NCBI GenBank assembly: GCA_043732305.1
Contig: JAYTHU010000031.1
Coordinates: 4,739-68,738, forward strand
DNA from: Oligoflexia bacterium
Lineage (GTDB): Bacteria > Bdellovibrionota > Bdellovibrionia > JABDDW01
Length of the DNA stretch: 64,000 nucleotides
Direction: 5' to 3'
A model generated the notes under the pieces. That model was not told the origin of the DNA. It searched no databases and was given only the letters and a program-made list of their open reading frames with translations. Of the stretch, positions 21,598 to 63,219 are shown piece after piece (positions within the stretch are counted from its first letter, which is position 1; the number at the start of each line of letters is the position of its first letter). Made by a program: the position numbers and the translations under genes.

Positions 21598-22989
21598 TTA
21601 CTCCGAAACCAAAGTGTGCAAATGACTGATCACGTATTTTTCCAGACCACCGTAATAAGACCACGTTGAATCGGTCAAAATTTCCCCGGCAATGACATGA
21701 GCATCCTCTTTAGATATTTTTCTCAAGTCGCTTTGAGTGACACGGCTTAATATTTTTGTAATGACAATGATTTTAAGCGGAAACTTCGAATTGACATTCA
21801 TGAAATTATGGGGAAGGAACTCGGTCGCCGGGTAAACTATTTTTTGGATAAACTGATCATCTCTCCAACTCGAATCATCAAATTTATAGATAATAGGTAC
21901 AATCTCTCTCAGCACATCAATAGAGATAGGAGTGCTATTTGCATAATCCTCGAGAATATTCAGAGCAATCCTGGAAGACGTCGGTGAGCTAAGAAGGTAA
22001 ATCATATGATCGAGGATTTGTCTATCACCGAGGCTGATTTTTACCAGACTTAAAGAAGGATTTAATTTAGAATCTCCTTCCACGAGAAAATCCAGATCCA
22101 ACCCTTGCGAAGAGGCACTGATCACTGATTTTACAATTTCACTCTCGTTCACGGCATCCGCCCGCTCTTTAATTTCCCGAACTTTTCCTAAGATCTGAGA
22201 AAGTCCACCAGTCATAGCGGAAACTTGCAACTGTTGAATCCCCAGCTTTTCTAGCTCTCGTTTGAAAGACTCAACTAAGATTTTCTCACTCGTCTGTTCC
22301 ATAGCCTCCCTTAAAATTCGTTCTCGCTCGACCATTAAACTGGAGGTAGCTTGCAGCAAAATATATTCTTCATTCAAATCTTGAACAATGGCGGAAAATT
22401 TAATTTTGCAAAGACCAATGGTTTTCCGGCACCCGCTAATTTTCTTAGCGAGTACCAAAACCTTAAGTTTATAGTCCGGTGATAACCAACGGCTGAGCTT
22501 GAAAACCGACGGCTTTCCCTCAGCTAAAATATTCTGTAACTTTCCCACAAGCAATCCGATGCTTTGGGTTCCATAAAGGGCGGCGTTGGCTCTCGCCATA
22601 CTTTCTTTATACCGAGAAACATCAAGACCGATTTTCTGCTTTGAAATCGCCAGTACAAGATCAAAAACTGACTGATTCCAGTTCGCGAGGACTTCACTGG
22701 CTAAATGCTGCGGATGAGAGAAACGTGAAGTGGAGATTTTTTCTTTTACTGCCATCACCAATTTTGAAGCTTCTTCCCGAAGAGTGGCTTCTCCTAAATC
22801 ACCCAATTTAGTTTCAAGTTCCAAAACTGTGGATCTATTTTCAAGCGCCTCTAGGACGCTGACGCAGCGAGTATGCAGATCAGAAGACTCCTGTGTTTTT
22901 TCTTCAGATAAAGATCCATGGAGTTCGGATGCCCTAGCGAAATTAGTCATACAAAAAATAAAAACTATAATAAATAATAAATATTTCAT
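21598..22989 (-). CDS. secreted protein, paralogue family member 2 (subgroup A)
   Basis: Signal peptide. SRFSHPQHLASE, GCRKTIGLCKIKF, NEEYILLQ and SVISASSQGLDLDFL are near-identical blocks to member 1. Confidence 0.6.
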   Translation of the reverse strand: MKYLLFIIVFIFCMTNFARASELHGSLSEEKTQESSDLHTRCVSVLEALENRSTVLELETKLGDLGEATLREEASKLVMAVKEKISTSRFSHPQHLASEVLANWNQSVFDLVLAISKQKIGLDVSRYKESMARANAALYGTQSIGLLVGKLQNILAEGKPSVFKLSRWLSPDYKLKVLVLAKKISGCRKTIGLCKIKFSAIVQDLNEEYILLQATSSLMVERERILREAMEQTSEKILVESFKRELEKLGIQQLQVSAMTGGLSQILGKVREIKERADAVNESEIVKSVISASSQGLDLDFLVEGDSKLNPSLSLVKISLGDRQILDHMIYLLSSPTSSRIALNILEDYANSTPISIDVLREIVPIIYKFDDSSWRDDQFIQKIVYPATEFLPHNFMNVNSKFPLKIIVITKILSRVTQSDLRKISKEDAHVIAGEILTDSTWSYYGGLEKYVISHLHTLVSE

Positions 22990-24395: not shown

Positions 24396-26248
24396 TCCGT
24401 CCTCAAAATGGCTTCGCTTACAAGCTGATCCACAACTTCACTTATCTTTGCGTCTCGCTCTGGATCAAGATGAACCCCTCTAGAAAGAGCTGTTCTTTCT
24501 ATCACTTTCTTAAGATTTTCCCTCGCTGTAGTTTCAAATTCAGAAATGTTATCTTGCCCAAGGATTTGAACATGGCGCAAACCCACTACCGCAAAAAATA
24601 TACTCGCATTGAATGCCTGTTTTTCGTGACTCATTCCTATCGCATTATAAATACTGTCAGGAATTTGCGCGTATGTGTCCACCCAATTCACAGATTGGTT
24701 CTTGCGAGAAAAAAGAAGCGTCGACAGAGAAAGGTACTGCGCAATGGTGATGCGACGATTTTCCTTGAACAAATGAGTCCAAATTCTCGAGGCAATACGG
24801 CTTGCAGAAATCTGACTCAGATAGGTTGTTTCCATTTCTTTTTTAATTCCCACGAGATAATCAGAAACACCTAAATCAACCAAAGGCTCAAGCAGTCCTC
24901 GAAGTGACTGATTCAATGCGAGGCCCAATTTGTCATTTTTATGATGGGACAAAACATAACCGATGAACTTTGGAATTTTCGATGCGAAAACAGGATCTTC
25001 AAAAAGAAGGTTGAATCCCTGAAAGAGAACTCTTTGATCCGTGTTTTCGAGAAGATTAGTGGCCATTGTGCCGAATAAATGACTAGCCAAAAGTTCATCA
25101 TCTTCACTGTTGGCAGCAAACTTTTCCACTCTAAGCATGGTTTCAGCAACCAAACGTGTATCTAACCACTTCACAGAAAGAAGAGCAGTGAGTTGTAAAA
25201 AATCTGCATTTTCCTGGAGCTTTTCCACTGCATGACCATAAGCTGCAGATGTGAGGGGCAATGATTTTAAAAGATTCCATGACTCTTCTTTTATACCCCA
25301 AATACTTACACTTTTTTGTTCGCGCCTATGCCACTCCATTTTCCATTCGATAGGCTCCACGTCATCTTCTCGCGGCACTAGAAGAGGCTGGAGATCCACG
25401 GGCACTTTCAGTGATTGGGCTTTGATAATCAAACGGTGGCTAAACTCAACCCTGGATTCCCGAGCGTTACTGCCCACTTGATCGGCGGTAATAATTATTT
25501 TTTCTAAAGTCTCACTCATAATCAAAAAATAGGACTCAAGCTTAGCTATCTCTAGCCTTTTGTTATTTAGCGCCGTTATCACGGAACTTTGAGGGAAAGT
25601 AGATGGCAACCAGTCAGATAGATTTTCCAAAAGGAGATCTAAAATTTTAACTTGATCTTGCAGTAACGACTCCACATTTTTGACCGTCGCGAACTCCTGA
25701 TTGAGATTTTCAATAATTGTTTTAAGCTCTTTTGAACAATGGTTGATCGATACCCGACACTCTCTCACTCGAGCGACTTGTTTGAGAAGTTCCTGCTTTT
25801 TTTTCTCGATGTTGAATCGAGCGCGACCGTATTGATCGATCCTTACATCTAAACTATTCAAAAGTTTCTGTTCGCTGTCCACACCAAAGAGAAGCGTTTC
25901 TAATTCTTCTAACTTTTTAGGCTTAGAGTTTGTGTTTTGAGAAACTTGTCTTTGGCTCACTGCTCGTACCATTTCTAAAAGAGGTTCAAAATGATCTTGA
26001 AGCCGAGTTTGAATTTGAAAATACGGACTAGAGAATTTTTCTTTTTCTAATGCAAAAACTAAATCCTTCACTAATTTTTCATAGACTTGTTTCTGGTCCA
26101 CAGGTTGGGATGCCTTGAATTCCAAAACTTTTTCAAGCTCAAGGATACATGGTTGTGCATTGATAAAGGTGGGAGAAGAAGTAACTGCTGAAAAAGCGTT
26201 GCCACCTAGAAAAAAAACGGGAAACACTAAAGATAAAAACACTTTCAT
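24392..26248 (-). CDS. secreted protein, paralogue family member 4 (subgroup B)
   Basis: Signal peptide. FSSPYFQIQ, LEELETLLFG, C-x6-C (ECRVSINHCSKEL), NQEF and WLP blocks shared with 26248-28161 and 30205-32106. Confidence 0.6.
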   Translation of the reverse strand: MKVFLSLVFPVFFLGGNAFSAVTSSPTFINAQPCILELEKVLEFKASQPVDQKQVYEKLVKDLVFALEKEKFSSPYFQIQTRLQDHFEPLLEMVRAVSQRQVSQNTNSKPKKLEELETLLFGVDSEQKLLNSLDVRIDQYGRARFNIEKKKQELLKQVARVRECRVSINHCSKELKTIIENLNQEFATVKNVESLLQDQVKILDLLLENLSDWLPSTFPQSSVITALNNKRLEIAKLESYFLIMSETLEKIIITADQVGSNARESRVEFSHRLIIKAQSLKVPVDLQPLLVPREDDVEPIEWKMEWHRREQKSVSIWGIKEESWNLLKSLPLTSAAYGHAVEKLQENADFLQLTALLSVKWLDTRLVAETMLRVEKFAANSEDDELLASHLFGTMATNLLENTDQRVLFQGFNLLFEDPVFASKIPKFIGYVLSHHKNDKLGLALNQSLRGLLEPLVDLGVSDYLVGIKKEMETTYLSQISASRIASRIWTHLFKENRRITIAQYLSLSTLLFSRKNQSVNWVDTYAQIPDSIYNAIGMSHEKQAFNASIFFAVVGLRHVQILGQDNISEFETTARENLKKVIERTALSRGVHLDPERDAKISEVVDQLVSEAILRTE

Positions 26249-28161
26249 TAATTTAACTGCCCCACCGTTCTATTCAGGAGATTGTCTATGTATTTTTCGA
26301 CTCCCAGCTGATAGGATTGACTGGATCTCTTGTGACCGGGCATATGCTGAAGCACGATTCTCAACAGACGAGCATGCGCACGCTTTCTAAAATTAGGAAT
26401 ATTATCCATGCTCAGAATTTGAATCTTACTCAGTGCTTTTACGGCAAAAAATATTATTGGATTGAGCCTGACGTAACCATCCCCTTGGAATGGCCCATAA
26501 AATTCTTTGGGTAGAACTTTAAGTTCATCGTTGCTCCAACCTCCCGGACAGAGATCCCAGACAGAGGTTGCTCCGTGATTTACCGATACTTCTAAAAGTT
26601 TGAAATAATCTTCTGCAACCAAACGAGTCTTAGGATCGTTCAAATAATCCCACATCAGCTTGACTTCAAGATCTCGCGAGTCAGTGCCTTCTCCCGCAAG
26701 CTCGCCCATCCTCTGCATAAAATTAAAATCAACCATCACCGTGGGTCCCAGCATGAGGGCTTGTGTGATAATCAGGCGGGCTCGATCCGCGGTGCCCACT
26801 GGGTGCAGTTCACCCAGGAAAAGTGGAATCTGCCCGAGGACATCTCCCTGGAAAAGCCCACTGAACCGGCTGTGAATCCAATCATTCTCCATACGGTGAT
26901 TGAGACGTGACATAAGAAAGTCCACGGCAAGTTTTCCTCGAGCCTTAAATATCACGTCTTTGGATTTGAGAAAGCCTTCGATTGCACGAACAATCTGCAG
27001 AAGGTCAGGTGCTCCGCCAATGTTTAAGGAAAATAATTCTATTTTCCTCATGAGACTTTCCGTCTGACCTAATTCATCAGCCAATATTTTAAATTGCCGG
27101 CTGTTTAAGGGAAGCTTCAATAAAACCTGCCACGAAGGGTATTTATCATCCCAAACAGCACTCTCCATGTTGTCTTCGCTAGCGGCTATGTTCGCTGGCT
27201 TGTCGGGTCCCGGTAAAAACTGGTCTAAATTTATATTTATATCCCAATAAGTTGATTTCAGTTCATCCCGCTCTTTCAAGATAAAATTGAGATCAATGGC
27301 CGGTGACTCCGAACCAGCGCGGATGATAGCCCTTTGAATCCCTTCTATTTGGGTTGAGCCTGCGTGGCTTGCGGACTGATCTGCTCCGATCATGATTTTT
27401 TCAATGGCGTCAGCCATCAATGTGAAATAACTCACCGATTGACCGAGCTCTTGAATCTTATTTGAAATAGCTTTCTTGACAGAATCACTTCCCGATTTCA
27501 CAGGCAACCAGTCATTGGTATTCGAGAGGACAAGTTCGAGAATTTTCGTTTCATCTTCCAAAACACTGAGCACGGTTTTTACAATTTTATATTCGGCGTT
27601 CATTTCTGAAAGCAGAACGGTCACATCAGTAGTGCATTTCTTAATGGCAGCACGGCATGCTTTCAATTTGTTCCCGGCATCTACAACCGCTCTTACCCTA
27701 TCGGCTATTTTCTCGCCCGTTGTTTTGAATGAAATCAGCCCCCCCTTCCGCTTAGCACTGAGGGTATTATTTAATTGCTCGAGTAATTTCAACTCCGTGT
27801 TTGTTCCAAAAAGAAGGGTTTCCAATTCTTCCAGAGCCTTGGGCTTTGTCGTCGAACTATTAGAAATTTGTCGGAGACTCACTTCCAGCGCAAGTTCAAT
27901 GATGGGTTTTAGATATTCGCTCAAACTATTTTGAATGACAAAATAACTACTGGAAAAAAAATCACTTTTGAGAGCCGCTTCGAGCTGCTTTTGTAAAATA
28001 GAATATCTAATCTCGATCGACTCACCATTGTTTTTGACGATGCTTTCAAGAGACGCTTTGCATGGGGGCCGGCTGAGCTCGGCACTTTTAGCGCAGGAAA
28101 TCCAAAGGCACCCTGCCAGAAATGCCATTGCCAAAATAAAAGGCTTTTTGTCCCCGCTCAA
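26248..28161 (-). CDS. lipoprotein, paralogue family member 5 (subgroup B)
   Basis: LAGC lipobox. FFSSSYFVIQ, LEELETLLFG, ACRAAIKKCTTDV, NAEY, NDWLP. TAATG stop/start overlap with member 4. Confidence 0.6.
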   Translation of the reverse strand: MSGDKKPFILAMAFLAGCLWISCAKSAELSRPPCKASLESIVKNNGESIEIRYSILQKQLEAALKSDFFSSSYFVIQNSLSEYLKPIIELALEVSLRQISNSSTTKPKALEELETLLFGTNTELKLLEQLNNTLSAKRKGGLISFKTTGEKIADRVRAVVDAGNKLKACRAAIKKCTTDVTVLLSEMNAEYKIVKTVLSVLEDETKILELVLSNTNDWLPVKSGSDSVKKAISNKIQELGQSVSYFTLMADAIEKIMIGADQSASHAGSTQIEGIQRAIIRAGSESPAIDLNFILKERDELKSTYWDININLDQFLPGPDKPANIAASEDNMESAVWDDKYPSWQVLLKLPLNSRQFKILADELGQTESLMRKIELFSLNIGGAPDLLQIVRAIEGFLKSKDVIFKARGKLAVDFLMSRLNHRMENDWIHSRFSGLFQGDVLGQIPLFLGELHPVGTADRARLIITQALMLGPTVMVDFNFMQRMGELAGEGTDSRDLEVKLMWDYLNDPKTRLVAEDYFKLLEVSVNHGATSVWDLCPGGWSNDELKVLPKEFYGPFQGDGYVRLNPIIFFAVKALSKIQILSMDNIPNFRKRAHARLLRIVLQHMPGHKRSSQSYQLGVEKYIDNLLNRTVGQLN

Positions 28162-28178
28162 TTCTTCCCACCCTGATC

Positions 28179-30092
28179 TTATAATTTAGTTTTTGCTATA
28201 TTTTCGAGCTCTGAAGTGCAGTCCGCTCCATCCATGGTTCCGCCCACACTACGACTCACTAAATTTTGAGCTTCAATGGCCGCAGAATTGAGACGGCCCA
28301 TCGCGATAAAACTCTTACTTGCTTCTATTTCCATGCGGGCTTTTTCAGAGATAATAAAGTCGGCCGTTTCCTTGATTGTCTCGGCGCTGAAGTATGCCGT
28401 GGTATTGATCTCAATGATCATGTCATTGGCGCGCGCGACTTCAACTCGCAATTGTTTCAAACCTGCCTCTTGAGTGGCTCGCACCGCTTTGTTTGTACCT
28501 ACGGCCATTTCTAAAGTGGAGTTGGTGTTTTTGATCATTTCCAAGGTGGTAAAAATAGGCATGCCATTTCTCACGTTAGCGATGTCTTCTCTTACAAAAT
28601 AAATAGTGTCTAGCTGTTTGGCCATAGCTTCACCTATGAGTTCCATAGCTGAGGCCTGACTCAAACCCGCATTGAGACGGTTTCTGAGCTTCTGGCCCAC
28701 ATATGAAATCACGGCTTTCTCATCTTCAAAACGTCCATTGAGATGAAATTCTTCAACGACTCTGGCGATTTCATCGTCGACGAGTTTCCCGAGAGCTACT
28801 TTCATTTTCAAATCTTGGAGGTATCCAGACATCTCATGAAGAGTCGTGATGATTTGCACGCCACTTTCCTTCAATGTTTTAGAGTTGCTCAGCAATACAT
28901 TGTCGACACTCGTGATGCCTTGGCGGTGACTCAACAGTGCCAAACGATCTTTCTTAGGTTTAACGGCGGAAGTCAATTTTCGTTTCACGTAGCCTGGATT
29001 AGGAGCTGCCGAAAGTTTTCCATGCCATCGTTCACGTATCGTGGATTTCCCCACTTCATGCCCCATGCTCTGAAGAAGGTAAGACAAGTCCTTGATGTTT
29101 TGAAGAGATTTTAATTGGGTGTCGTTGATAGCAATATATTGTTTCGAGTTGCGATCTAAAATCTTATTGTTATTCAAGAAGCGTGTGGCCTGCTCGGAAG
29201 AAGCACTCAACTCACTTTCTAACGTTTGCATATTTTCTTGGCGGATTTGCGTTCGCCCCTCGGGAGATAATGTTTTTTCAATAAGTTCTAGAGCCAGCTC
29301 CTTAGCTTTTTTAGTGAGAGCGTCTGCGGAAACTCTGCTCATACGAACTTCAAGAGGCTTGGTTTCGCCCTCACCATTTTTATAATCACCAAGCAAGATT
29401 GTTCGAGTTTGATTTCGAGCGTAGAAAATTTCATCCACGCCATCACGTCTGCGAGAAGCGGCGTCTATCTCCTCGATTTCAAAAAGAATGCCGTCTCCGT
29501 TGGACAAAATATCTTTCGCATACTTCAAGAGACTAGCAGCAGGAATTTGCTGAGTGAGTCCTTGCCGAAGCACATCAAAATACATTTTTAAATTTACTAG
29601 AGAATCCGCATTTAATTTTCCCGGAGCAGTGGTCGTCACTAAAGTCACGAGATCTCTTAAACTGGGATCAGATGTCAATTGAGAGATATCAAAGGAACCA
29701 AGAGTCGCCAGAATCTCAAGTCTGATTTGGTTGACGTCAATGACTTTTGAATCTTTGGTTTCTTGAGCCACAATTGTTTGCAGGGCGGTGCTTACTGCAG
29801 GAAGTTTGTCACCAATCACGGCGATGGAAGATATCGCTTCGGGACTAAGTTTGTATTGAGTTTTTCCACTCTTAAATCTTTCTTGCAGCCGTCGAGTGAT
29901 TTCCGCAATCATGCTAGTTTGCACTACCTCAGTTTGCATTGCCTCCAATTGCCCGTGTTTATAGCTTGGCAGCTGAGTTGTAGTCACCTGACCGCCGGCA
30001 AAAGCAAGACTGCTCACCAATAAAAGGCTCAATGATTTTCCAAGAAGTTTGAGAAAAAAATTATTCTTTTGCATACTAGAAATCCCCTCCAT
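28179..30092 (-). CDS. secreted alpha-helical protein, first gene of the operon, not a family member
   Basis: 637-aa ORF with signal peptide (LLLVSSLAFAGGQ). No shared blocks with the paralogue family. No recognised domain. Confidence 0.5.
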   Translation of the reverse strand: MEGISSMQKNNFFLKLLGKSLSLLLVSSLAFAGGQVTTTQLPSYKHGQLEAMQTEVVQTSMIAEITRRLQERFKSGKTQYKLSPEAISSIAVIGDKLPAVSTALQTIVAQETKDSKVIDVNQIRLEILATLGSFDISQLTSDPSLRDLVTLVTTTAPGKLNADSLVNLKMYFDVLRQGLTQQIPAASLLKYAKDILSNGDGILFEIEEIDAASRRRDGVDEIFYARNQTRTILLGDYKNGEGETKPLEVRMSRVSADALTKKAKELALELIEKTLSPEGRTQIRQENMQTLESELSASSEQATRFLNNNKILDRNSKQYIAINDTQLKSLQNIKDLSYLLQSMGHEVGKSTIRERWHGKLSAAPNPGYVKRKLTSAVKPKKDRLALLSHRQGITSVDNVLLSNSKTLKESGVQIITTLHEMSGYLQDLKMKVALGKLVDDEIARVVEEFHLNGRFEDEKAVISYVGQKLRNRLNAGLSQASAMELIGEAMAKQLDTIYFVREDIANVRNGMPIFTTLEMIKNTNSTLEMAVGTNKAVRATQEAGLKQLRVEVARANDMIIEINTTAYFSAETIKETADFIISEKARMEIEASKSFIAMGRLNSAAIEAQNLVSRSVGGTMDGADCTSELENIAKTKL

Positions 30093-48794: not shown

Positions 48795-48858
48795 TTGAAA
48801 ACCTCCAAGGTTTGAGATTACCATTTTGCCGGTTTAATAGAGCAAATGCCAATGAGAA

Positions 48859-49332
48859 TTAAACGATGCGGGTCTTTTTCTTTCCACTGCGCTTGTGCTC
48901 TTTAAGTGCTTGCCTGATCATAGGAGCCATATCTGCGATGTATTGAAAAATAGGATTTTTAAATTCAAACTCCATTGTTTCCACACCCATCAAAACGAGA
49001 TTAACCCAAAAAGTAGGGTCAGAAATCGTATTTTCATCTTTCCCATCAATCTTTTGTGATTCAATCCATAGTGCAACCCACCGGCTAACTGTCTGTTGAG
49101 TTTTAGTTTGAAGATCACGGACAGAGTTTTCCATTCGTTTAATAAAAAATAAAGGCAAACCAATTCCAAAAATGAGAACCCCTAAGCCAATGAACATCAT
49201 GGCTTCAGGTTGAACCATTCCAGTTTTAAAAAAATAAAACGCAGCCACTATTCCCGTGAACAATAAAAAGAAATTGATCAAGAGTAACGCTTGAAGATAT
49301 TTTTTTAACATTCGATATTTCGCTAAACTCAT
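48859..49332 (-). CDS. hypothetical membrane protein
   Basis: Two to three TM segments. No family recognised. Confidence 0.4.
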   Translation of the reverse strand: MSLAKYRMLKKYLQALLLINFFLLFTGIVAAFYFFKTGMVQPEAMMFIGLGVLIFGIGLPLFFIKRMENSVRDLQTKTQQTVSRWVALWIESQKIDGKDENTISDPTFWVNLVLMGVETMEFEFKNPIFQYIADMAPMIRQALKEHKRSGKKKTRIV

Positions 49333-49509
49333 ATGCTTCCTATCGGGTTGAAATCATCAGACCTAACCTAGACTCTGGTCCAAATATACTCAGCGTTGCT
49401 GACTCGAACACTCATCTGGGTTTGGCGGAATCGATACCGACAGGGTACACGTATATTTTCTAATTCCCTTGACGGCACATTTTTTATCTTCGATCATGTT
49501 TATAACATA

Positions 49510-49719
49510 ATGACGACACCAAAAAAAAACGACAAGCCTCAAAAAATTATTTTGCAATCCACTCTGATCGAACTTCAAAAAGCTTTCGATGATTGGGATA
49601 AAGTCGTTGTGCCCGAACCAGTGAAACCGGAAGTAGAAGGCGCAGAAACGGAAATTAGGAAAAAAACTCAAGAAATTTTACAGAAGCTCAATGAGCAAAT
49701 TAAAGAGTTCGACCTTTAA
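49510..49719 (+). CDS. small hypothetical protein (69 aa)
   Basis: Internal ATG of the 49396 ORF (MTTPKKNDKPQK...), charged helical. Confidence 0.3.
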   Translation: MTTPKKNDKPQKIILQSTLIELQKAFDDWDKVVVPEPVKPEVEGAETEIRKKTQEILQKLNEQIKEFDL

Positions 49720-49755
49720 CTTCCCGCTCTAGTAAGTTTCAAATTTTATAATTTT

Positions 49756-50439
49756 CTAAAAATGATAAATTCCCAAGAAAACCAGTCCACCGAGTAGCGC
49801 AAATGCTGCTCCCCGTTTGCCAGCTGCAGAAATAGGCAGAAGCTGTGAAAACGTGATGTACACAAGAATCCCGCCTGAAATGGGCAAGAGATACTCCTGC
49901 CATTGCGAGAAAATCGAAGGAGCAAGCAATCCCAAACCTAATGCAGATAGCACGATTCCTAAAGACATGAGAGCTCGCCAAACTGTGGCTCCAGCGGCTA
50001 ATGCGACCCCGAAAACAATCAATGATTCAGGGATGAGATGGAAAATTTGCCCAATTAAAACTTTTTGTCCCAAACCTGTGCTCGATAGAAAAGTAGTTCG
50101 AATGGCCACTCCGTCAAACAGCGCACAGAAAGTAAGACAACCAACCGTCGAACAGGCCGCAGCGACATCCAGCAAAGGCGCATGCGAATGCCCATGACCG
50201 TGGTCATGCGAATGATCATGATGAGAACAAGAATCTACACTGGTATTTAAAAAATTGAGATGAGGGGAAACAAATCGATCGAAGATAAATACTAAAACAA
50301 CGCCCGCCAGGATCCACGGCGAGCGATTTTTTACTGTAGGAATGAGATCGATGAAAATCAGCGCGGATAAGTAGCCCGTGCCGAATGCCATCATGGACCT
50401 TAATATTTTATTTGATGCTAGGCTTTTTTCGCTTTTCAA
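49756..50439 (-). CDS. zupT: ZIP-family zinc transporter with His-rich loop
   Basis: Polytopic membrane protein with loop CSHHDHSHDHGHGHSHAP. Conserved ZIP TM motifs (HLIPESLIVFG...). The start may be MMAFGTGYL at 50394. Confidence 0.7.
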   Translation of the reverse strand: MKSEKSLASNKILRSMMAFGTGYLSALIFIDLIPTVKNRSPWILAGVVLVFIFDRFVSPHLNFLNTSVDSCSHHDHSHDHGHGHSHAPLLDVAAACSTVGCLTFCALFDGVAIRTTFLSSTGLGQKVLIGQIFHLIPESLIVFGVALAAGATVWRALMSLGIVLSALGLGLLAPSIFSQWQEYLLPISGGILVYITFSQLLPISAAGKRGAAFALLGGLVFLGIYHF

Positions 50440-50701
50440 GACTTCTCTTTATTTTCACCAAGCGCGCGGAGAGATTTTCTTCACGAGCTTTGAAAATGGC
50501 ATTGGCAATTCCGCCCTGCTTTTGAATTGTCTTGATTCCGTTAGCAGAAATCTTCAAAGTGATCGAACGCCCGATCTCTTCAATGATATATCTCTTGTGA
50601 GTGATATTTGGCAGCCAACGCGTTCTATTTTTATTGTTCGCGTGACTGACCAAGTTTCCTGATCTGGGACCGATACCGGTAAGTTCACAAAATTGAGACA
50701 T
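50408..50701 (-). CDS. rpmB: 50S ribosomal protein L28
   Basis: [33 protein letters not shown]...ISANGIKTI aligns with E. coli L28 along its length. Confidence 0.8.
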   Translation of the reverse strand: MSQFCELTGIGPRSGNLVSHANNKNRTRWLPNITHKRYIIEEIGRSITLKISANGIKTIQKQGGIANAIFKAREENLSARLVKIKRSLEKRKKPSIK

Positions 50702-51255
50702 TATTCAGCTCCTCGTTGATGACCACCACCGAAACCACCACCGCCGTGTCCACCACGGTCTCCACGATCGCCTCTATCATGCCCGCCGCCAAATCCACCG
50801 CCGCCGCCACGATCAAAACCGCCGCCACCGCCGCGATCTCCACCGTCACGGCCGCCGCCGAAACCGCCGCGACTTCCGCGATCACGATAGCTGCTTTGTT
50901 GTTCTTCGTAGTTGATATATTTTGTTCCAACAGGAAGAAGTGCAAGTGTGCGAGCACGTTTAATGTGCACTTTTAATGATCTTTGTTGTTTAGCACTCAG
51001 TCGGCTCACACGAGCAGGAATAATTTTTCCATGTTCGGTAACAAACGGTCTGAGACTTTCAGGATCTTTGTAATCGAAAACCAAATCGACTGCGGGACGT
51101 GGTCGTCCTCGGCGTCCTCCGCCTCGGAATCCTCCGCCTTTTTCATCGCCACCGTCACGGCCGCCACCATCGCGTCCGCCACCGTCACGACCACCAGCAC
51201 TTCGGTCAGAACCGTGTGCGCCTCTTGAATCTCTAGTTTCTCTTTGTTCTCTCAT
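50701..51255 (-). CDS. rpsR: 30S ribosomal protein S18 with Gly/Arg-rich (RGG-type) N- and C-terminal extensions
   Basis: Core [53 protein letters not shown] is S18. About 50 aa of GGRDGGG repeats precede it and ~65 aa of [18 protein letters not shown] repeats follow. The shadow ORFs here are repeat artefacts. Confidence 0.75.
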
Positions 51256-51266
51256 TTAAAAAATCC

Positions 51267-51434
51267 TCACTTAATTTCTTTGTGCAAAGTATGTCTTCGC
51301 AGGAACGGATTGAACTTCATTTTCTGAAGGCGATCCGGTGTCTTAGTTTTGTTTTTTGATGTGGAGTAACGAGAGGGCGGTTTGCCTTCTTTACGTGCTT
51401 CTGTGCATTCCAATGTGATTAGAACTCGTGCCAT
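51267..51434 (-). CDS. rpmG: 50S ribosomal protein L33 (Cys-poor, zinc-independent type), not in ORF track (<60 aa)
   Basis: Reverse translation gives [55 protein letters not shown], colinear with L33 (...[31 protein letters not shown]). It has a single Cys and lacks a CxxC pair. Confidence 0.75.
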
Positions 51435-51533
51435 AAAATAAACCTTTCTTGATCTTTATCTGAGCGCTTGAAATTACCCCTACTCCCCGCTATTTTGCAA
51501 CTGTAAATATTTAAATAATAAGGGAGCGGTTCA

Positions 51534-52865
51534 TTGACTCAATCATCACACACACCAAACGCATCAAAACTTCTGATTAAAAACTGTGATCTTTGGACAA
51601 CGTCAGAGGTGAAAGTCGCTCAAGACATCATCGTTCACGATGGAAAAATCGTCGATATTTATCCATCTTCGATCTCAAACGGTGAAAATTTTCATGATCA
51701 CGTCGTGTATGAACCCAAGGACGCATTGATTCACCCACTTGGCGTTGACCCTCAAGCCCACTTGCGTGTTCCAGGTCAGAGTCAGAAGGAAACAGCCGAG
51801 ACCGGTATCAAAGCAGCGCTTCGCGGGGGTTACGGGGCTCTTCTCACCATGCCAAACACTCAGCCTGTAATTGATACTCCGGAAATTTGTGACATCGCCA
51901 TGAAAGAACTTAAACCCTGGATGGACAAACTCGGGGTGAATGTCTATTTGTCTGCCGCCATGACAGTGGGGCAAAACGGAAAAATGCCAGTCGAAGGACT
52001 CTCGCTTAAAAAATGGGGCGTGAAAGCACTGACTGATGACGGGAAAGGCCTGGCCTCTGACGAACTCATGGAAAAACTTTTTCAAATTTCAGAGCAGACA
52101 GGTCTTCCTTTGCTTCAGCACGCAGAATTTCCTGGTCACGGAGGTGTTCTTGCTCCGGGGAGCGTGCAAAAGAAACTTGGCGTGAAGCCCTATTTTGCTG
52201 ATCCTGAAGTTGAAATGGTAAAAAGAGACATCGCGCTATTGAGAAAACATCCAAAAGCGCATTATCACGTGCTTCACGTCTCAAGCGCGCAGACAATTGA
52301 ACTTGTAGCCCAGGCTAAAAAAGAAGGATTGCCCATCACTTGTGAAGTTTGCCCTCACCATCTTTTATTCACCACAGAAGACATCCGTGAAAACGATAGC
52401 TCGTTTAAGATGAATCCACCTCTGAGATCAGCCAACGACCGCAAAGTTTTACAGCAGGGTTTAGATGAAGGAATTATTGATTTTGTTTCGACTGATCATG
52501 CTCCGCACGAGGCATCATTAAAAACTCGCGAATTCACTTCTGCGGCCTTCGGAACAACGGGACTGGAAACTGCGCTGAGGGCATTGCTGTTTTTAGAAAG
52601 CGAAAATCTACTCTCGAAGAAAAGAGTGGTTGAAACGTTCTCTCACCGCCCGGCCATGTTTTTGAAAATTGAGAATGAGATCAGTCAACTTTCTAAGGGA
52701 GATTTTTTTCATGCAGTGATTGTCGAAAATAAATCCAAGGCCACTAAAATAGAAAAAGCTGATCTAGCCAGCCTTTCTTCGAACAATTGTTTCCTAGAAT
52801 TTGCAATGCCCGGGAAAATCACTAGGGTCTACAATAGAAAAGGCCAATTTGATTTCTCAAATTGA
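51534..52865 (+). CDS. dihydroorotase-like cyclic amidohydrolase (PyrC paralogue-like) with altered first metal-site motif
   Basis: Amidohydrolase fold with STDHAPH and HVLHVSS blocks. The canonical N-terminal D.H.H motif reads DPQAH. TTG start at 51534. Confidence 0.6.
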   Translation: MTQSSHTPNASKLLIKNCDLWTTSEVKVAQDIIVHDGKIVDIYPSSISNGENFHDHVVYEPKDALIHPLGVDPQAHLRVPGQSQKETAETGIKAALRGGYGALLTMPNTQPVIDTPEICDIAMKELKPWMDKLGVNVYLSAAMTVGQNGKMPVEGLSLKKWGVKALTDDGKGLASDELMEKLFQISEQTGLPLLQHAEFPGHGGVLAPGSVQKKLGVKPYFADPEVEMVKRDIALLRKHPKAHYHVLHVSSAQTIELVAQAKKEGLPITCEVCPHHLLFTTEDIRENDSSFKMNPPLRSANDRKVLQQGLDEGIIDFVSTDHAPHEASLKTREFTSAAFGTTGLETALRALLFLESENLLSKKRVVETFSHRPAMFLKIENEISQLSKGDFFHAVIVENKSKATKIEKADLASLSSNNCFLEFAMPGKITRVYNRKGQFDFSN

Positions 52866-52899
52866 CCTTCTAATTTCCCTCTTAGACTGAGAGGATGAA

Positions 52900-53205
52900 C
52901 TACCAGCTGGCTTTTGTTACGCCAGGCAAGAGACCTTTGAGGGCCATCTGTCTGAACGTCAAGCGAGACAATTCAAATTTCTTGTAAACCGCACGTGGGC
53001 GGCCAGTCACTCGGCAACGATTACGAATTCTGTTTTCACAGGAATTTCGTGGCAGAGCTTCGAGTTTACGTCGAGCTTCAGATCGGTCTTCAGGAGACAA
53101 TTTGATACTCTTAGCAAGAGCACGCAGTTCCTGTCGGACTTCACGATACTGTTCAGTCACTCGTTTTTTTCGGTCATTGTTCGCAATTTTTGATAATTTA
53201 GCCAT
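52900..53205 (-). CDS. rpsN: 30S ribosomal protein S14 (long, Cys-poor form), stand-alone
   Basis: ...[51 protein letters not shown] is colinear with E. coli S14 (101 aa). It has only two Cys and is not inside an S10/spc operon context. Confidence 0.75.
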
Positions 53206-53351
53206 CGAGTTAAAACTCCATTTGTTTTTAAATTCGCTCCAAACTACTTCAGGACGAATTCTTTTTCAATACATTTGTTTTTGGCCCTGCTATTGCATTA
53301 GAAAGCTAACAAAACACAACAACATGCTCTCCAAAGGATTAAGGGATAGGA

Positions 53352-54014
53352 ATGAAGCCATTCGTAATAGTATTTAGTCTGCTACTGGCTGGTTTCACAT
53401 CAACGGCGCTCTCAAAAGTAACGGAAACTGACTATGCTTCGGCTTTCGATGCATTGAAGACATTTAGTGAAAGACCCGGCCGCGGGCCCTATGAATCTTG
53501 GGAAAAGCTTGAGGCCAACCTGGCAAAATCATTTGTTGTCATCAAAGAGCCAGAAACAGACATTCAACCGTATAATTTTGTTGTCTACTCGCCCTTTGAT
53601 CTTCCAACTAAGTTCGGTGCAGCCGCTCACACTTTTGTATTAAGGCGCACCAAAGCTTCTCGCTTTCAGGTTCTCGTTTCAAGGAATGAAGACCTGACTC
53701 TCTCAAGTTCGCTTGTTCCCACATTGTTTGAAGAGAATGAAAAATCAAATCCGATAGTGCGAGACGTTGTCATTTCACGTTTTAAGTTTGAAAACGAAAC
53801 TTCGCTTCAAGAATTCTTAAACAAATGGAAAAATGCTCGCTCTGCTTACGTCGGAGATGGGTCAGTTCGCTACCCCCAACAAGCCAGAGCAATTAGATCA
53901 ATATTTACCGAAGCTTTTCCGTATATCTGGCTGAAAGAAAAATTTGCCTCTGGGAAATCATGTTTGAATCGACTCAAAAATGTGACTGACGGAAATCAGC
54001 CTCTGAGGAAGTGA
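53352..54014 (+). CDS. hypothetical secreted protein
   Basis: Signal peptide MKPFVIVFSLLLAGFTSTALS. No domain recognised. Confidence 0.4.
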   Translation: MKPFVIVFSLLLAGFTSTALSKVTETDYASAFDALKTFSERPGRGPYESWEKLEANLAKSFVVIKEPETDIQPYNFVVYSPFDLPTKFGAAAHTFVLRRTKASRFQVLVSRNEDLTLSSSLVPTLFEENEKSNPIVRDVVISRFKFENETSLQEFLNKWKNARSAYVGDGSVRYPQQARAIRSIFTEAFPYIWLKEKFASGKSCLNRLKNVTDGNQPLRK

Positions 54015-54484
54015 CAAGTGTAACCACCAGGATTTTTCTGCAGGTAATCCTGGTGATAGGTTTCGGCAGAATAAAACTGTTCGGCGGGAATAATTTCAGT
54101 CACAATCGGCCTTGACCAGCGTCCGGAATCTTGAACTTCTTTCTTTTTATTTTCGGCGACGGTTTTCTGATCTTCGTTTTGGTAAAAAATTATTGAACGA
54201 TATTGTGAGCCCATGTCATTGCCCTGTTGATTCTTGGTAGTGGGGTCATGCATGCGGAAGAAAAAATCTAAGATTGCTTCAAATTTAGTTTGCGTGGGAT
54301 CAAACTCTATTTCAATAGATTCGGCGTGACCGGTTTTCCCAGTCTTGACTTCTTCATAGCGGGGATACTTTGTGGTTCCGCCGCAATAGCCAACCTCAGT
54401 TTCAATCACTCCAGGGATTTTTCGAATGATATCTTCCATCCCCCAGAAGCATCCACCGGCTAAAACAGCAACTTCAGTTTTCAT
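53996..54484 (-). CDS. msrA: peptide methionine sulfoxide reductase MsrA
   Basis: GGCFWG active-site motif and HDPT, YHQDY blocks. Confidence 0.85.
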   Translation of the reverse strand: MKTEVAVLAGGCFWGMEDIIRKIPGVIETEVGYCGGTTKYPRYEEVKTGKTGHAESIEIEFDPTQTKFEAILDFFFRMHDPTTKNQQGNDMGSQYRSIIFYQNEDQKTVAENKKKEVQDSGRWSRPIVTEIIPAEQFYSAETYHQDYLQKNPGGYTCHFLRG

Positions 54485-59043: not shown

Positions 59044-59481
59044 CTACTTAAACTCAGAGGATTTGGCAGCAGCCTTCTTTTTCTGATGGAATAAGTAAGG
59101 CAAAATAAATGCCAGGCCAACGTAGGTGTGCAGGCCCGTGACCAAATTTTTGAAATTTTCGTCAACTGCGTAAAGAATAAAAGGTACCGTCAAAGTTAGA
59201 AATCCCAGTATGGCGAGATTAAACAATCCTCCGCGTTTCCTCTCAACTCCTTTTAATCCCGGTTGAATGTGAACGCGGATGAAATACCCAAAGACAATCA
59301 AGAAAGCAAAACTCACAACCGCATGAGCTTTCAAAATCCAGATTCGCGAAGGCGGTGATTCTAATCCCATTCCGTAGTCGTGAGATAAAAATTTCTGCAT
59401 GAGCCAAACAATCAAACCCGTGACATAGAGTGCAAGAAAACTATAAATAAATATTTTCTTGAATCTCCCTTGAAGCTTCAT
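59044..59481 (-). CDS. hypothetical 4-TM membrane protein
   Basis: Four hydrophobic helices. Last gene of the ApbE/FMN_bind operon (4-nt overlap). Confidence 0.45.
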   Translation of the reverse strand: MKLQGRFKKIFIYSFLALYVTGLIVWLMQKFLSHDYGMGLESPPSRIWILKAHAVVSFAFLIVFGYFIRVHIQPGLKGVERKRGGLFNLAILGFLTLTVPFILYAVDENFKNLVTGLHTYVGLAFILPYLFHQKKKAAAKSSEFK

Positions 59482-60407
59482 GGGGCTATAAGTTCAGAGA
59501 ACAAATCCAAGGTTTGATCATCCTGGATTATATTTTCTGTGAGCAGTGTTTCATCATGGAAATATCTTTCCGCCACTTCGCCAAAGGAATCAAAAATCAA
59601 AATTTCAGATTTAAATTGATCGCAGGCTTTCTGAATTGTTGAAGGCGTGCCAAACAAGGCCACCTTGGTCAGAGCATCAGCTACGCTGCAGGTGTCAGCC
59701 AGCACGACGGCCGCATGATCACTCGTGAGATTCGCACGAAGCGGAAGTTCATATCTAGTGGTCGATTGTGCATTGTTTTTCGAAACCGTTAATGAACTTG
59801 TCGCAATGGCTTTAAAATGGGTTTCGATCTTCCGTAATACTGGGATATCATAATTTCCGAGTCGCAAATCGATCTGCGAATTCACTTTGTTAAAAAAGCG
59901 CATGTCGCCACCGGCATTCACTACTCCACTGACAAGCAAACTTTCAAATAGACCATTGGGAGCCACTCCACCAAAAACTTTCGACTCAGAAAAGATTCTC
60001 AAGAAATCTTTACTAGAAACAAGAGTCAAAATCTCCTCAACAACAGCATCGACAATAAAGCCTTTTGAAATTCCATCCAGATCGACAGAAAATCCAGCGT
60101 CTTTACGAACTCTAAAAACTGAATCCGTCTTTTCTTGGATATCCAAAGCCAATCCTAACAGAAGATTAAAATCTTGGTTGTTTTCTCGCCGCTCAAAAGG
60201 TTCATTTGAAAATCGAGAAAATATTTTTTCTAAGTTATGCGCCTTCTCAAAGGCCGCTGCAAAAATGGCATCGGCGAAAACTTCAGTGTCGAAAGTTGAA
60301 AAAAATCCTTCGGCTAAAGTAGAACCGGGCGCCAAATCGAGAGAGACTTGAAAAAACGTACCCAGCAAGGGTTTAGATCTTTTATATTTCTTGTTTAATG
60401 ATGTCAT
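59478..60407 (-). CDS. apbE: FAD:protein FMN transferase (ApbE family)
   Basis: KPLLGTFFQVSL (LMGT-type start), GISKGFIVDAVVE and NAGGDMRF are ApbE motifs. Confidence 0.65.
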   Translation of the reverse strand: MTSLNKKYKRSKPLLGTFFQVSLDLAPGSTLAEGFFSTFDTEVFADAIFAAAFEKAHNLEKIFSRFSNEPFERRENNQDFNLLLGLALDIQEKTDSVFRVRKDAGFSVDLDGISKGFIVDAVVEEILTLVSSKDFLRIFSESKVFGGVAPNGLFESLLVSGVVNAGGDMRFFNKVNSQIDLRLGNYDIPVLRKIETHFKAIATSSLTVSKNNAQSTTRYELPLRANLTSDHAAVVLADTCSVADALTKVALFGTPSTIQKACDQFKSEILIFDSFGEVAERYFHDETLLTENIIQDDQTLDLFSELIAP

Positions 60408-60912
60408 ATGATTCCAACACTCTCTTGACTCCCGCAGTGACGTGAGAAGAAGAAAGGGTAGCTCCGCTGATGTTTTTGATGTCTTTGTCGAGTTTGAAAA
60501 GAGCTGTTTTATCTTTTCCTACAAATTGATTTCTCCAAGCATCGCGCTTGATCTCATGCCCGTATGATTCTCGATATTCCAATATCTCAATGCCTTTGAC
60601 TTTACCTTTGGAAGTGATTCCCACGGCATAGGTGATCATCTCGTGTTTCCCGAGAGCCCGATCAATCACAACAACATCTTTATTTTTATTTTTCCAGACG
60701 GTGATTGTTTTATTTTTCACGGAATCATCAGATAATTTCTCAATCAAAGTGATCTGATTCGAAGTCAAAAGAATCTGACTCTTGACCATTTTCTGGCCGG
60801 GGAATATTAAATCCACAGCTTTGTGCTCAGTCATATAAATTTCGCAATGAGCAGTCACCGCGTACGCGGGTCCAAGTAGGCTGAGAACTAAAACTCCAGG
60901 CTTAGAAAACAA
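60382..60912 (-). CDS. FMN-binding domain protein (NqrC/RnfG/NosR-type FMN_bind), secreted
   Basis: Signal peptide. ISGATLSS flavinylation motif (S/T-G-A-T) in an FMN_bind-like domain. Adjacent to apbE. Confidence 0.65.
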   Translation of the reverse strand: MFSKPGVLVLSLLGPAYAVTAHCEIYMTEHKAVDLIFPGQKMVKSQILLTSNQITLIEKLSDDSVKNKTITVWKNKNKDVVVIDRALGKHEMITYAVGITSKGKVKGIEILEYRESYGHEIKRDAWRNQFVGKDKTALFKLDKDIKNISGATLSSSHVTAGVKRVLESYDIIKQEI

Positions 60913-60950
60913 GGTCCATCTCCTTTTCTAGAACTAATAAATAGCTAATA

Positions 60951-61874
60951 TCAATGTGCGTGAGAGTGCTCCGTGCCCAATGGAATTCCGAATGCCACCC
61001 GAAACTCAATATTCTCGTGTTGCCCCAGATGCGCATAAGAGCTGGTCACAGGAACACCATCATTACCAATACCGAGATTTCTCGGCCAGCCGGCAATTTG
61101 CGGCAACACAGTAACCGTCCACCAGTAGGCTTCACCACCATAATGCACATCTACCCCAGCAAAATAAGCCGAGTGTTCTTGGGTTTGAAGATTCATGTCC
61201 GTGAACTCCATATGATTTCTTAATTCGACCCCTAAAAACCAATTGTCATGAACGCGGTAATTTGCGCCCAACGTGAATTCTGCCCAGAGCTCTTTCGATG
61301 AAGCTCCATCGTTTATTTCCCACTCGGGTTCCAACATAAAATTAAATGCTGTAACCATCTGATCACCAAAGAAATCCTTTTGCAAAATTATTCTGGTCTC
61401 GAGTGATCTCTCGATTTTATCTTGCCCCGTCTGTTTGTCTCTGACTGCAACTTCAGGCTCGATATAAAAGCCTAGACCTACGCCGTCTTTATAAGGGCTC
61501 AATACACGATAAATGAATTCTACCGACACTCCATTCACATTGAATTCGTTTTTATCCGGCAGATTGTTTGAGATATCCTCTGGGAGATAAATGTTTTTTA
61601 GGTAGTTGTAAGAGCTATTTATATAGAAAGCGGCCTGAAATTTGTCAGTGACTCCGTATTCGAACTCATTTCTGAGATCGACTGCCGTGTAACTCCCGCG
61701 AGCCTTCCCAGTGCGCATGGTCTGCTTCTGTTCATACTCCCAGTGATCGGCAGGGGTCGTATCTAAAGTGTAAACGTAACCGAAGTAACCTTCGCTGGCA
61801 TGGGCTTTCTCAGAAAGCAGCAAGAGTGGTGATAAGAGTGCAAGCAGAGTCAAAATTGCGCGCGATCGGGCCAA
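60951..61874 (-). CDS. putative outer-membrane beta-barrel protein
   Basis: Signal peptide, alternating amphipathic strands with an aromatic-rich terminus. First gene of a 4-gene minus-strand operon. Confidence 0.4.
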   Translation of the reverse strand: MARSRAILTLLALLSPLLLLSEKAHASEGYFGYVYTLDTTPADHWEYEQKQTMRTGKARGSYTAVDLRNEFEYGVTDKFQAAFYINSSYNYLKNIYLPEDISNNLPDKNEFNVNGVSVEFIYRVLSPYKDGVGLGFYIEPEVAVRDKQTGQDKIERSLETRIILQKDFFGDQMVTAFNFMLEPEWEINDGASSKELWAEFTLGANYRVHDNWFLGVELRNHMEFTDMNLQTQEHSAYFAGVDVHYGGEAYWWTVTVLPQIAGWPRNLGIGNDGVPVTSSYAHLGQHENIEFRVAFGIPLGTEHSHAH

Positions 61875-62106
61875 TGGGAACCTCCATAAGTGATAGTTAC
61901 TATCATATAGCTTTAGTTGACCGTAAACTCAAACAGTGACGGCAATTATTGTCACTGAGTGTAACCATTTCATATCAACGGCGGTTTAACCCATTTTGGC
62001 GCTGGCACCTTCATTGCTTTATACCAAGCGAAAGACAAATTCTGAAACGGAAGCCGACTTCGGCACCGATCAGAGATGAATTAATTTTTAAAAAGCGAGG
62101 AAGTAT

Positions 62107-62775
62107 ATGGGTCTGTTTTCAAGTGTTGTGGGTGCGTTTCAACATGGCGGCATCTGGATGTGGGTTATTTTCGTAGCTCAAATGTTTTCTTTAGCCATCA
62201 TTGTAGAGAGAGTTTCAGCTCTGTACTTCAAACGTAACGACAAACAAAAAGCCGTGGCTCGTTTGTTCGAAGATGATATCCGCAAAGGCCAAATCGATAA
62301 AGTTCTCACTCGCGCCATGAAAATGGGCGATTCCGAAGCCATCACTCGCGTGATTCAAGTTGGAGCTCAAGCGTCTTTAGACATGGGTGGACGTGAAGAA
62401 ATTCAATCCCGCATGGATGAAGTTTTACTCGCAGAAAATTCTAAATTAGAAAAACGCACTGGATTTTTGGCGATGATCGGAAACGTCGGAACATTATTAG
62501 GTCTATTAGGAACCATCGTTGGCTTGATTGATTCATTTGCATCAGTGGCTAACGCTAACCCAATGGAAAAAGCCGCTTTGCTTTCCCAAGGTATTTCAAT
62601 CGCGATGCATTCTACCGCTTACGGGTTGATCATGGCGATTCCTGCTCTCGTGATGTACGCAGTTCTCACAAACCGAGCTAACGCACTTTCTGAAGATTTA
62701 AATCAAGCAGCACTCATGGTTTTCAACTGGCTCAGCTTTAACAATGAATCAGTCTCAATCAAAAAAGCTAGATAA
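62107..62775 (+). CDS. MotA/TolQ/ExbB-family proton channel
   Basis: 3-TM protein with LAMIGNVGTLLGLLGTIVGLI and AMHSTAYGLIMAIPAL blocks typical of TolQ/ExbB. Confidence 0.75.
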   Translation: MGLFSSVVGAFQHGGIWMWVIFVAQMFSLAIIVERVSALYFKRNDKQKAVARLFEDDIRKGQIDKVLTRAMKMGDSEAITRVIQVGAQASLDMGGREEIQSRMDEVLLAENSKLEKRTGFLAMIGNVGTLLGLLGTIVGLIDSFASVANANPMEKAALLSQGISIAMHSTAYGLIMAIPALVMYAVLTNRANALSEDLNQAALMVFNWLSFNNESVSIKKAR

Positions 62776-62793
62776 CCGGAAAAGGAGAAACTT

Positions 62794-63219
62794 ATGTCAC
62801 GCAAAAAAGAATTAGACTTCGAATTAAATATCATCCCGATGATCGATATTCTTTCCGTCTGCATCTGTTTTCTCCTGATGACTATCGTTTGGATTCAAGT
62901 GGGAGCAATAAAATCGGCTCAGAGTTTGGGTGGACAGGCAAAAACTGCCAAAACTAATCCCCCTGCTATTTGGGCCACTCTTACTCCTAGCGGAATGATC
63001 CAACTCGATTTGAAAGACGTTCCTAAGAACGAAAGATTTTCTAAACAAGTTCCGCTCTCGGCAGTGCCACAGGTAATGGCGTTTGTGAAAAGTCATGTTC
63101 CAACAATCAACACGGGTCTGGTGATGCCATCAAAGCTCACCGCCTATAGCGACATTATCAGCGTGATGGACCAAATGAAAAAAGTGGGAATCAAAGACGT
63201 AGGAATTTCGCCACTCTAA
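62794..63219 (+). CDS. ExbD/TolR-family protein 1
   Basis: ELNIIPMIDILSVCICFLL single TM, then ExbD-type periplasmic domain. 141 aa. Confidence 0.7.
   Translation: MSRKKELDFELNIIPMIDILSVCICFLLMTIVWIQVGAIKSAQSLGGQAKTAKTNPPAIWATLTPSGMIQLDLKDVPKNERFSKQVPLSAVPQVMAFVKSHVPTINTGLVMPSKLTAYSDIISVMDQMKKVGIKDVGISPL

Follow-up and report, generated by a model that had tools for sequence, protein, structure and literature searches.

Zinc-free ribosomal proteins L33, S18, L28 and S14 in an uncultivated Bdellovibrionota clade: a zinc-sparing island that may have become the resident set

In a stretch of 64,000 nucleotides from an Oligoflexia bacterium (assembly GCA_043732305.1, contig JAYTHU010000031.1, positions 4,739 to 68,738; hereafter the window), the genes for ribosomal proteins L33, S18, L28 and S14 lie together with those for a dihydroorotase-like enzyme and a ZIP-family metal permease, at positions 49756-53205. 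We interpret this locus, with evenly balanced confidence, as a former alternative-protein island of an uncultivated Bdellovibrionota clade, whose zinc-free copies have become resident and are expressed constitutively. A sequence-only reading had taken the locus for a zinc-sparing island of the Zur type. The zinc-sparing content of that proposal stands, as the four ribosomal proteins lack zinc-ribbon Cys ligands and are accompanied by a Gln-variant dihydroorotase and a ZIP permease, but neither control by Zur nor the presence of second copies found support.

All six genes lie where they had first been placed, and each matches its family in profile searches with Pfam and curated models, bL33, bS18, bL28 and the long-form uS14 all scoring above curated equivalog or Pfam cut-offs. 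L33 (rpmG, 51267-51434, minus strand, 55 aa; PF00471, E=2e-18; NF001860, 79.3 against a cut-off of 50) is a real gene whose product has, as first noted, one Cys and no CxxC pairs; at the site of a CxxC in zinc-ribbon forms it carries the remnant CTEA (within LECTEA), in which one Cys is left. S18 (rpsR, 50701-51255, minus strand, 184 aa; PF01084, E=2.5e-19; TIGR00165, 61.6 against 38.75) has no Cys, and L28 (rpmB, 50408-50701, minus strand, 97 aa; PF00830, E=1.2e-20; TIGR00009, 69.9 bits against 48.3) has one and no CxxC. S14 (rpsN, 52900-53205, minus strand, 101 aa; NF006477, the long form, 124.4 against 77) has the two Cys residues that had been reported for it, Cys55 and Cys63, spaced as C-x7-C and not as CxxC pairs. 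The zinc-ribbon Cys ligands are gone in all four proteins.

Zinc-binding forms are found elsewhere in the phylum. The conserved core of the window S18 (approximately 50902-51105) is Cys-free and contains SRLSAKQQR, whereas operon-located Bdellovibrionota S18 proteins read KKVCRFC...GNCxxHQR, and the 14 Bdellovibrionota S18 genes that we recovered in an S6-S18-X-L9 operon, which come from one group, all encode three Cys. Together with L087, a relative whose spc operon encodes an S14 of type Z, these three-Cys proteins indicate that zinc-binding counterparts of the island proteins exist in the phylum.

The genes on the minus strand form, as had been proposed, one tightly packed unit: L33 and S18 are 11 nt apart, S18 and L28 share an ATGA in which the L28 start lies over the S18 stop, and L28 and ZIP are separated by 16 nt. 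The dihydroorotase-like gene (type I amidohydrolase, 51534-52865, plus strand, 443 aa) diverges from this unit and the monocistronic S14 gene converges on it, in the same order in five further lineages. No other ribosomal protein genes lie within the window; S6, L9, L5 and S8 are absent both from it and from every locus of the clade, where rpsR and rpsN stand outside their canonical contexts (rpsF to rplI and rplE to rpsH, respectively).

Relatives were found by a scan of GTDB species genomes using the S18 core and by exact-protein look-ups. The five further lineages, which carry the labels Bdellovibrionia, Oligoflexia or Bdellovibrionales, are L003; L002, L004 and L091 (one metagenome-assembled genome, MAG); L005; L093-L099; and L181. 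In all of them the order is S14, convergent dihydroorotase, divergent L33-S18-L28, a small open reading frame (ORF), a membrane protein, RidA and DUF218. Because the arrangement is repeated in five other lineages, it is neither a chance juxtaposition nor an assembly artefact. Dihydroorotase identity (60-75%) defines three roughly equidistant branches, namely the window with L003, L005 with L094, and L181; L002 probably belongs, by its sequence, with the window and L003. Across lineages the ribosomal proteins (L33 84-93% identity, S14 72-82%) are kept better than their neighbours (dihydroorotase 60-75%, ZIP 51-83%).

L28, L33, S14 and S18 are also the proteins of the alternative ribosomal protein (AltRP) operon of mycobacteria (rpmB2-rpmG1-rpsN2-rpsR2) and of the Zur regulon of Streptomyces coelicolor (rpmG2, rpmB2, rpsN2, rpsR2), in both cases in Cys-poor form (PMC5912738, PMC6103462). 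The resemblance extends to clustering outside the usual operons and to the proximity of zinc-related genes, and the gene composition therefore argues for a zinc-sparing origin; the locus probably descends from an AltRP-type island. Unlike AltRP operons, the window locus has no recognisable Zur box, and zinc-binding counterparts, of S18 and S14, were found in relatives. It also differs in having S14 on its own promoter beyond the dihydroorotase gene, a ZIP gene inside the operon and long low-complexity tails on S18, and in belonging to Bdellovibrionota.

The same composition would be expected of a zinc-responsive island, in which second, zinc-independent copies of the four ribosomal proteins and of dihydroorotase are, like the ZIP permease, repressed when zinc is ample and induced under zinc limitation by Zur or another sensor acting at an unrecognised operator, an alternative that we regard as possible but not probable. 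In its favour, the content is the same in kind as that of the mycobacterial and Streptomyces AltRP operons and of the Pseudomonas PyrC2 system (PMC5912738, PMC6103462, PMC11672702), all four ribosomal protein genes are outside their usual operons, the operon-located S18 proteins recovered from the phylum have three Cys, and the spc S14 of L087 is of type Z. A related genome, L006, moreover clusters a Cys-free L32 and a type B L31 with a Cys-free S18. The regulatory and copy-number evidence given below points the other way.

The dihydroorotase-like protein passes TIGR00857 (pyrC_multi) narrowly, with 282.9 against a cut-off of 279.05, and its best structure matches are the staphylococcal and Bacillus type I entries 3gri, 3mpg and 4yiw, together with the dihydroorotase entries 1xrf and 3d6n (E ~1e-57 to 1e-59, against 9e-27 for 2gwn). 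Residue-by-residue alignment to 3gri, 4yiw and 3mpg shows that Gln replaces the first His of the HxH zinc-ligand motif (DPQAHLR), leaving the TIGR00857-type ligand set incomplete, and that the five other ligands are kept, in TDDG (the bridging Asp), HAE, HVLHVS and DHAPH. Gln in place of the most N-terminal His of zinc site 1 is the hallmark of Zur-regulated PyrC2 (PMC11672702) and is shared by PyrC2 of Pseudomonas aeruginosa and the class III dihydroorotase of Porphyromonas gingivalis (2GWN). Unlike PyrC2, the window enzyme retains the class I Asp bridge (TDDG) and not a carboxylated Lys, and it is far closer to type I structures. The suggestion of a PyrC-like zinc-sparing enzyme is thus borne out as regards the PyrC2 hallmark, but in other respects the protein is of type I, with its Asp bridge kept and no Zur box at its gene.

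The QxH form is present in 19 of the 150 nearest representatives at 50% identity, among them nearly all of the closest full-length ones. A metagenome scan based on the alignment of QxH dihydroorotases returned ordinary HxH enzymes at 79 of 80 loci, the patterns being too general, and a single QxH locus (L101) beside ExbB/ExbD. Enzymes of this type usually adjoin pyrB, as do 53 of 80 ordinary HxH homologues from metagenomes, but no PyrB-like gene was detected in the window or in the clade loci. An inactive PyrC' acting as a scaffold for aspartate transcarbamoylase was considered and rejected, since the enzyme retains five of six ligands and has no pyrB beside it.

The occurrence of a QxH dihydroorotase away from ribosomal genes, in L101, would suit a plain relocation with no zinc history, in which primary ribosomal protein genes left their usual operons and ended up adjacent, with dihydroorotase and ZIP as unrelated neighbours. 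We consider this unlikely. It needs a coincidence to bring together four proteins that each exist in zinc and non-zinc forms, all of them Cys-free here, beside a Gln-variant dihydroorotase and a ZIP permease, and another to account for the cluster of Cys-free L32, type B L31 and S18 in L006, in a phylum whose recovered operon S18 proteins contain Cys.

A Zur box had been expected in the L33/dihydroorotase intergenic region (51435-51533) or upstream of S14. We found no known consensus and no recurrent palindrome there, and what is conserved over six lineages is confined to promoter hexamers. The dihydroorotase gene has a putative sigma-70 promoter on the plus strand (TTGAAA 51468-51473, 17 nt, TATTTT 51491-51496), found by promoter scan, and the L33-S18-L28-ZIP unit has one on the minus strand (TTGCAA 51495-51500, 18 nt, TAATTT 51471-51476), which was read from the sequence and lies below the scan threshold. 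As the -35 element of each overlaps the -10 element of the other, both promoters occupy the same 33 bp (51468-51500). When this intergenic region was aligned for the window, L003, L002, L005, L094 and L181, only the hexamers TTG(C/A)AA, TAATTT, TTGAAA and TATTTT were conserved; the 17-18 nt promoter spacer is unrelated in each of the six lineages, and in L005 and L094 the entire intergenic region measures about 70 bp. S14 likely has its own promoter on the minus strand (53241-53269; TTGAAA 53264-53269, 17 nt, TAGTTT 53241-53246), again read from the sequence and not returned by the strict scan. Its counterparts in L005, L093, L091 and L181 combine TTGATT, TTGAAA or TTGATA with TAATTT, TAGTTT, TAACTT or TAGTCT at 17 nt, with nothing else conserved. 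Promoters that look constitutive would be equally at home in a plain relocation.

Searches for an operator were extended to six Zur/Fur consensus sequences (E. coli, gammaproteobacterial, Firmicute, actinobacterial, cyanobacterial and Desulfovibrio-type). Their best matches in the island had 3-9 mismatches, the closest ones falling inside coding sequence. Inverted repeats were not reported in the L33/dihydroorotase and S14 upstream regions, no palindrome recurred in the sequences upstream of Cys-free ribosomal genes (15 regions, taken from the six clade lineages, L006, Fluviispira and L085), and an Rfam scan of 48800-54100 gave only a chance microRNA match. With E. coli queries, no homologues of Fur/Zur, ZnuA or PyrB were detected in the window. 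A clean Fur-like 8-1-8 box, GTGATAGTTACTATCAT, was picked up by the same scans at 61890-61906, so the method does see such sites. A Zur box is the first listed requirement for membership of a Zur regulon, alongside induction under zinc limitation or demonstrated Zur binding (PMC6103462); the island contains no recognisable box. The lack of any operator, with hexamer-only conservation, free spacers and an intergenic region of about 70 bp in two lineages, and the lack of a match to known motifs in a window that shows a clear Fur-like box at another place, speak against zinc-responsive induction.

Some features of these upstream regions deserve mention in their own right. At 51455-51476 the bases past the -10 element of the L33 operon (GTAATTTCAAGCGCTC) agree exactly or almost exactly among the four ZIP-bearing lineages (window, L003, L002 and L181) and differ in the two ZIP-less ones (CAAGGATCT and CAAGGGCCT); by its sequence, this stretch could act as a GC-rich discriminator or be a site not yet recognised. 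In the window, the dihydroorotase gene starts with TTG, preceded by about 30 nt of leader with GGGAG as its ribosome-binding site. In the low-GC branch (L005 9646-9727, L094 2028-2106) its start codon lies a few bases past the -10 hexamer, so near that the dihydroorotase mRNA is probably leaderless there. The S14 leader of L005 (8012-8031) contains a perfect 9-2-9 inverted repeat, CTCCTTAAAGATTTAAGGAG, which would pair with the Shine-Dalgarno sequence and is not kept in other lineages; a translational feedback element is possible.

The question of copy number can be approached indirectly, first through S14. Among the best 120 homologues, the PRNSCENR signature of the island S14 is confined to members of the clade and to P0127-P0130, its nearest outgroup. 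The contigs of P0127 and P0128 (2.4 and 1.3 Mb) each carry a complete S10-spc-alpha cluster, in which these S14 genes are flanked by L5 and S8. Since this derived signature is common to the island S14 and to copies in the L5-S14-S8 position, two sister lineages have the orthologue of the island S14 as their primary copy. A long-form spc S14 retained by the clade's three NCBI MAGs would be expected among the best 120 matches, and none is there; the annotated MAG of L005 has a single long S14 (MBK9294162.1) among them. Orthology with the primary spc copy speaks against a zinc-responsive second copy and would also suit a plain relocation.

The spc operon of the clade was also sought with the L5 of the sister lineage as query, and the 120 matches were clustered; the candidate P0284 was rejected, as it falls in a large group resembling 'Bacteriovorax sp.', and sample accessions showed no overlap with those of the clade. 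The type Z S14 of L087 (CxxC...CxxC, 61 aa, 3339-3524), likewise in the spc operon, comes from a different, large Bacteriovorax-like group. Related Bacteriovoracia-like genomes differ in what lies between L5 and S8: L084 (10001-10306) and L100 have a Cys-poor S14 of 101 aa there, and L087 has the 61-aa CxxC type Z form, which indicates that S14 was replaced in place within that group.

The S18 gene gives evidence of the same kind. We searched with the pattern F[IV]TEHGKI, which also fits the three-Cys operon type but covers part of the phylum, and considered the best 80 of 121 matches. Within these, 27 GTDB species genomes (L004-L030, including the NZ_ record of Fluviispira multicolorata, L007) bear a Cys-free S18 at a site that lacks S6 and L9, and none of the 27 yielded a second S18. 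This too argues against a zinc-responsive second copy. The island genes had been proposed as second copies, whereas both the S14 orthology and the S18 scan point towards single copies. S18 is essential in E. coli; a sole S18 copy therefore cannot stay repressed. Taken together, the missing operator, the promoter-only conservation, the orthology of S14 and the S18 scan favour the view that these genes have become the resident copies and are constitutively expressed.

Primary copies in such a position have a precedent in an L33-S18 pair at a cyanobacterial locus (L032), a pair that would also be accounted for by plain relocation. In cyanobacteria and plastids rpl33-rps18, located like L032 away from S6 and L9, are the sole, primary copies, and rps14 lies outside the spc cluster. 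Unlike the cyanobacterial pair, the window locus appends L28 and ZIP, has S14 1.5 kb away and ties in the dihydroorotase gene through overlapping promoters.

In the interpretation that we favour, a once-regulated island of paralogues, among them a dihydroorotase weakened in its first zinc site, would have given rise to the present locus, and its zinc-free L33, S18, L28 and S14 would have become the resident, probably the only, copies. Constitutive transcription of L33-S18-L28, with ZIP where present, would be driven by a near-consensus sigma-70 promoter in full overlap with the divergent one of the dihydroorotase gene, and S14 would have a promoter of its own. Translation of S18 and L28 would be coupled through the ATGA overlap, and ZIP would be reached by read-through 16 nt downstream.

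The match of the permease to PF02535 is borderline (35.4 bits against a cut-off of 35.1) and the protein falls well short of the ZupT equivalog (31 against 252), although the orthologue in L002 has a strong precomputed PF02535 match; the His-rich loop (CSHHDHSHDHGHGHSH) and the HxxPE motif (FHLIPES), which had led to its description as a His-rich ZIP transporter, are both present. The gene (49756-50391, minus strand, 211 aa) most likely starts, on sequence grounds, at ATG 50391 and not at TTG 50439 of the longest ORF, as the latter would overlap L28 and an identical Logan contig carries a 211-aa gene call. We found no terminator-like site in the 16-nt gap between L28 and ZIP. The permease resembles E. 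coli ZupT, a short bacterial ZIP protein with HxxPE, and differs in its length of 211 aa and its place in a ribosomal operon. As ZupT is expressed constitutively and is not under Zur, the presence of a ZIP gene is no sure sign of regulation by Zur.

ZIP follows L28 directly, after 16-17 nt, in the window, L003 and L181, the dihydroorotases of which are about 62% identical. In L002 it is divergent from an inverted L28, with one intergenic region between the two, and at the loci of L005 and L093-L095 it is not present. We ruled out a late insertion of ZIP in one sub-lineage, given its occurrence in L181 and thus in two of the three roughly equidistant branches. Spread over deep lineages yet missing in some, ZIP appears to be an old but dispensable member of the locus. 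For a zinc-responsive island, its close coupling to L28 in three lineages, and the shared intergenic region in a fourth, would be natural, but its complete absence from two lineages would not. The linkage as such fits a working zinc operon and the relic of one alike. If constitutive co-expression were burdensome, it might be expected that ZIP was lost from one branch and uncoupled from the operon in L002.

Several points weigh against the proposal that the island's copies are resident and constitutive. Its gene content is exactly that of a regulated Zur island (PMC6103462, PMC11672702), and it is odd that a metal importer should be co-transcribed with genes expressed strongly and constitutively, an association nevertheless retained across deeply diverged lineages. 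The Zur/Fur consensus sequences that we used come from other groups and may not represent the operator of Bdellovibrionota. Single-copy status is inferred from relatives and by parsimony; the spc operon of the clade could possibly contain a short type Z S14, by analogy with L087, and a divergent, zinc-binding S18 could escape an S18 pattern that fits part of the phylum, or lie outside the best 80 of 121 matches, which is why we grade the evidence of that scan as moderate. Finally, codon usage compared with the ribosomal operon of L084, another organism, as a proxy for high expression gave a pooled z of 0.7, which points neither way.

A further and improbable possibility is that the locus is a zinc-economy module of new design, with ZIP hard-wired to the ribosomal operon so that metal import scales with ribosome synthesis, with its control exerted by competition between the overlapping promoters of the ribosomal genes and the Gln-variant dihydroorotase, or by an unknown sensor, in place of a Fur-type operator, and with the Gly/Asp/His-rich C-terminal tail of S18 buffering metal or binding RNA. 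This tail (G/R/D/H-rich, 50704-50901) has 65 aa in the window, is shorter in L003, L002 and L181 and is lacking in L005 and L094. It is therefore restricted to ZIP-bearing lineages, a correlation that proves nothing with just two or three independent branches. The R/G/D-rich N-terminal tail (51106-51255), noted earlier as an RGG extension of S18, is not peculiar to the locus, for Cys-containing, operon-located S18 proteins of the phylum have one too, as do those of Anaeromyxobacter. Both tails differ in length from one relative to another.

Zinc-free ribosomal paralogues are a textbook case of metal sparing, and nearly all work on them concerns Actinobacteria, Firmicutes and a small number of Proteobacteria; an AltRP-like set of L33, S18, L28 and S14, with a PyrC2-like enzyme and a ZIP permease, is now seen in Bdellovibrionota. 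The 'two C or not two C' model reportedly predicts an end point at which the alternative set takes over and the zinc switch is lost. If the zinc-free copies are the sole ones, the locus records that end point, and the clade offers a natural test of what it costs a ribosome to do without these zinc ribbons. If they are instead regulated, the locus would represent a zinc regulon with an unrecognised operator in a phylum of predatory bacteria. Either way the interest is for specialists and no new principle is involved.

Other zinc-free ribosomal genes were encountered in the phylum. In L006 ('Bdellovibrionales bacterium', JAEUWC01; 8013-10192) the Cys-free L32 is clustered with the type B, also Cys-free, L31, which lies directly upstream of the Cys-free S18, forming a second and different cluster of zinc-free ribosomal proteins, with no palindrome upstream there either. 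In Silvanigrellales (Fluviispira, Silvanigrella and many MAGs; L007-L030) a short Cys-free S18 stands alone. That of Fluviispira multicolorata (L007 9971-10216) follows a 973-aa gene resembling mutS, with no S6 or L9 within 10 kb.

The border of the island on the ZIP side is marked by a small conserved ORF (49510-49719, plus strand, 69 aa), convergent on ZIP, whose product in the window reads ...LQKAFDDWD...KKTQEILQKLNEQIKE. Homologues of 58-74 aa occupy the same position in L002, L003, L005, L093-L095 and L181, always convergent on the end of the ribosomal operon, and share the family motif LxKAxDEWD...KKTQExLxKLNxQIKE, for which no Pfam match was found. Directly before the start codon of the window ORF there is a 5-3-5 inverted repeat, ATGTT-TAT-AACAT.

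Elsewhere in the window, the Fur-like box lies in the divergent intergenic region between a DUF6662/FMN-bind/ApbE cluster (59478-61874, minus strand) and ExbB-ExbD (62107-63219, with a further ORF to 63738, plus strand), and this region is probably an iron-regulated uptake locus. At 19750-30092 the minus strand carries a run of six genes (463-637 aa), all encoding a signal-peptide-like N-terminus and a similar early motif, which looks like a tandem array of secreted paralogues; one 633-aa and one 983-aa gene diverge from this array.

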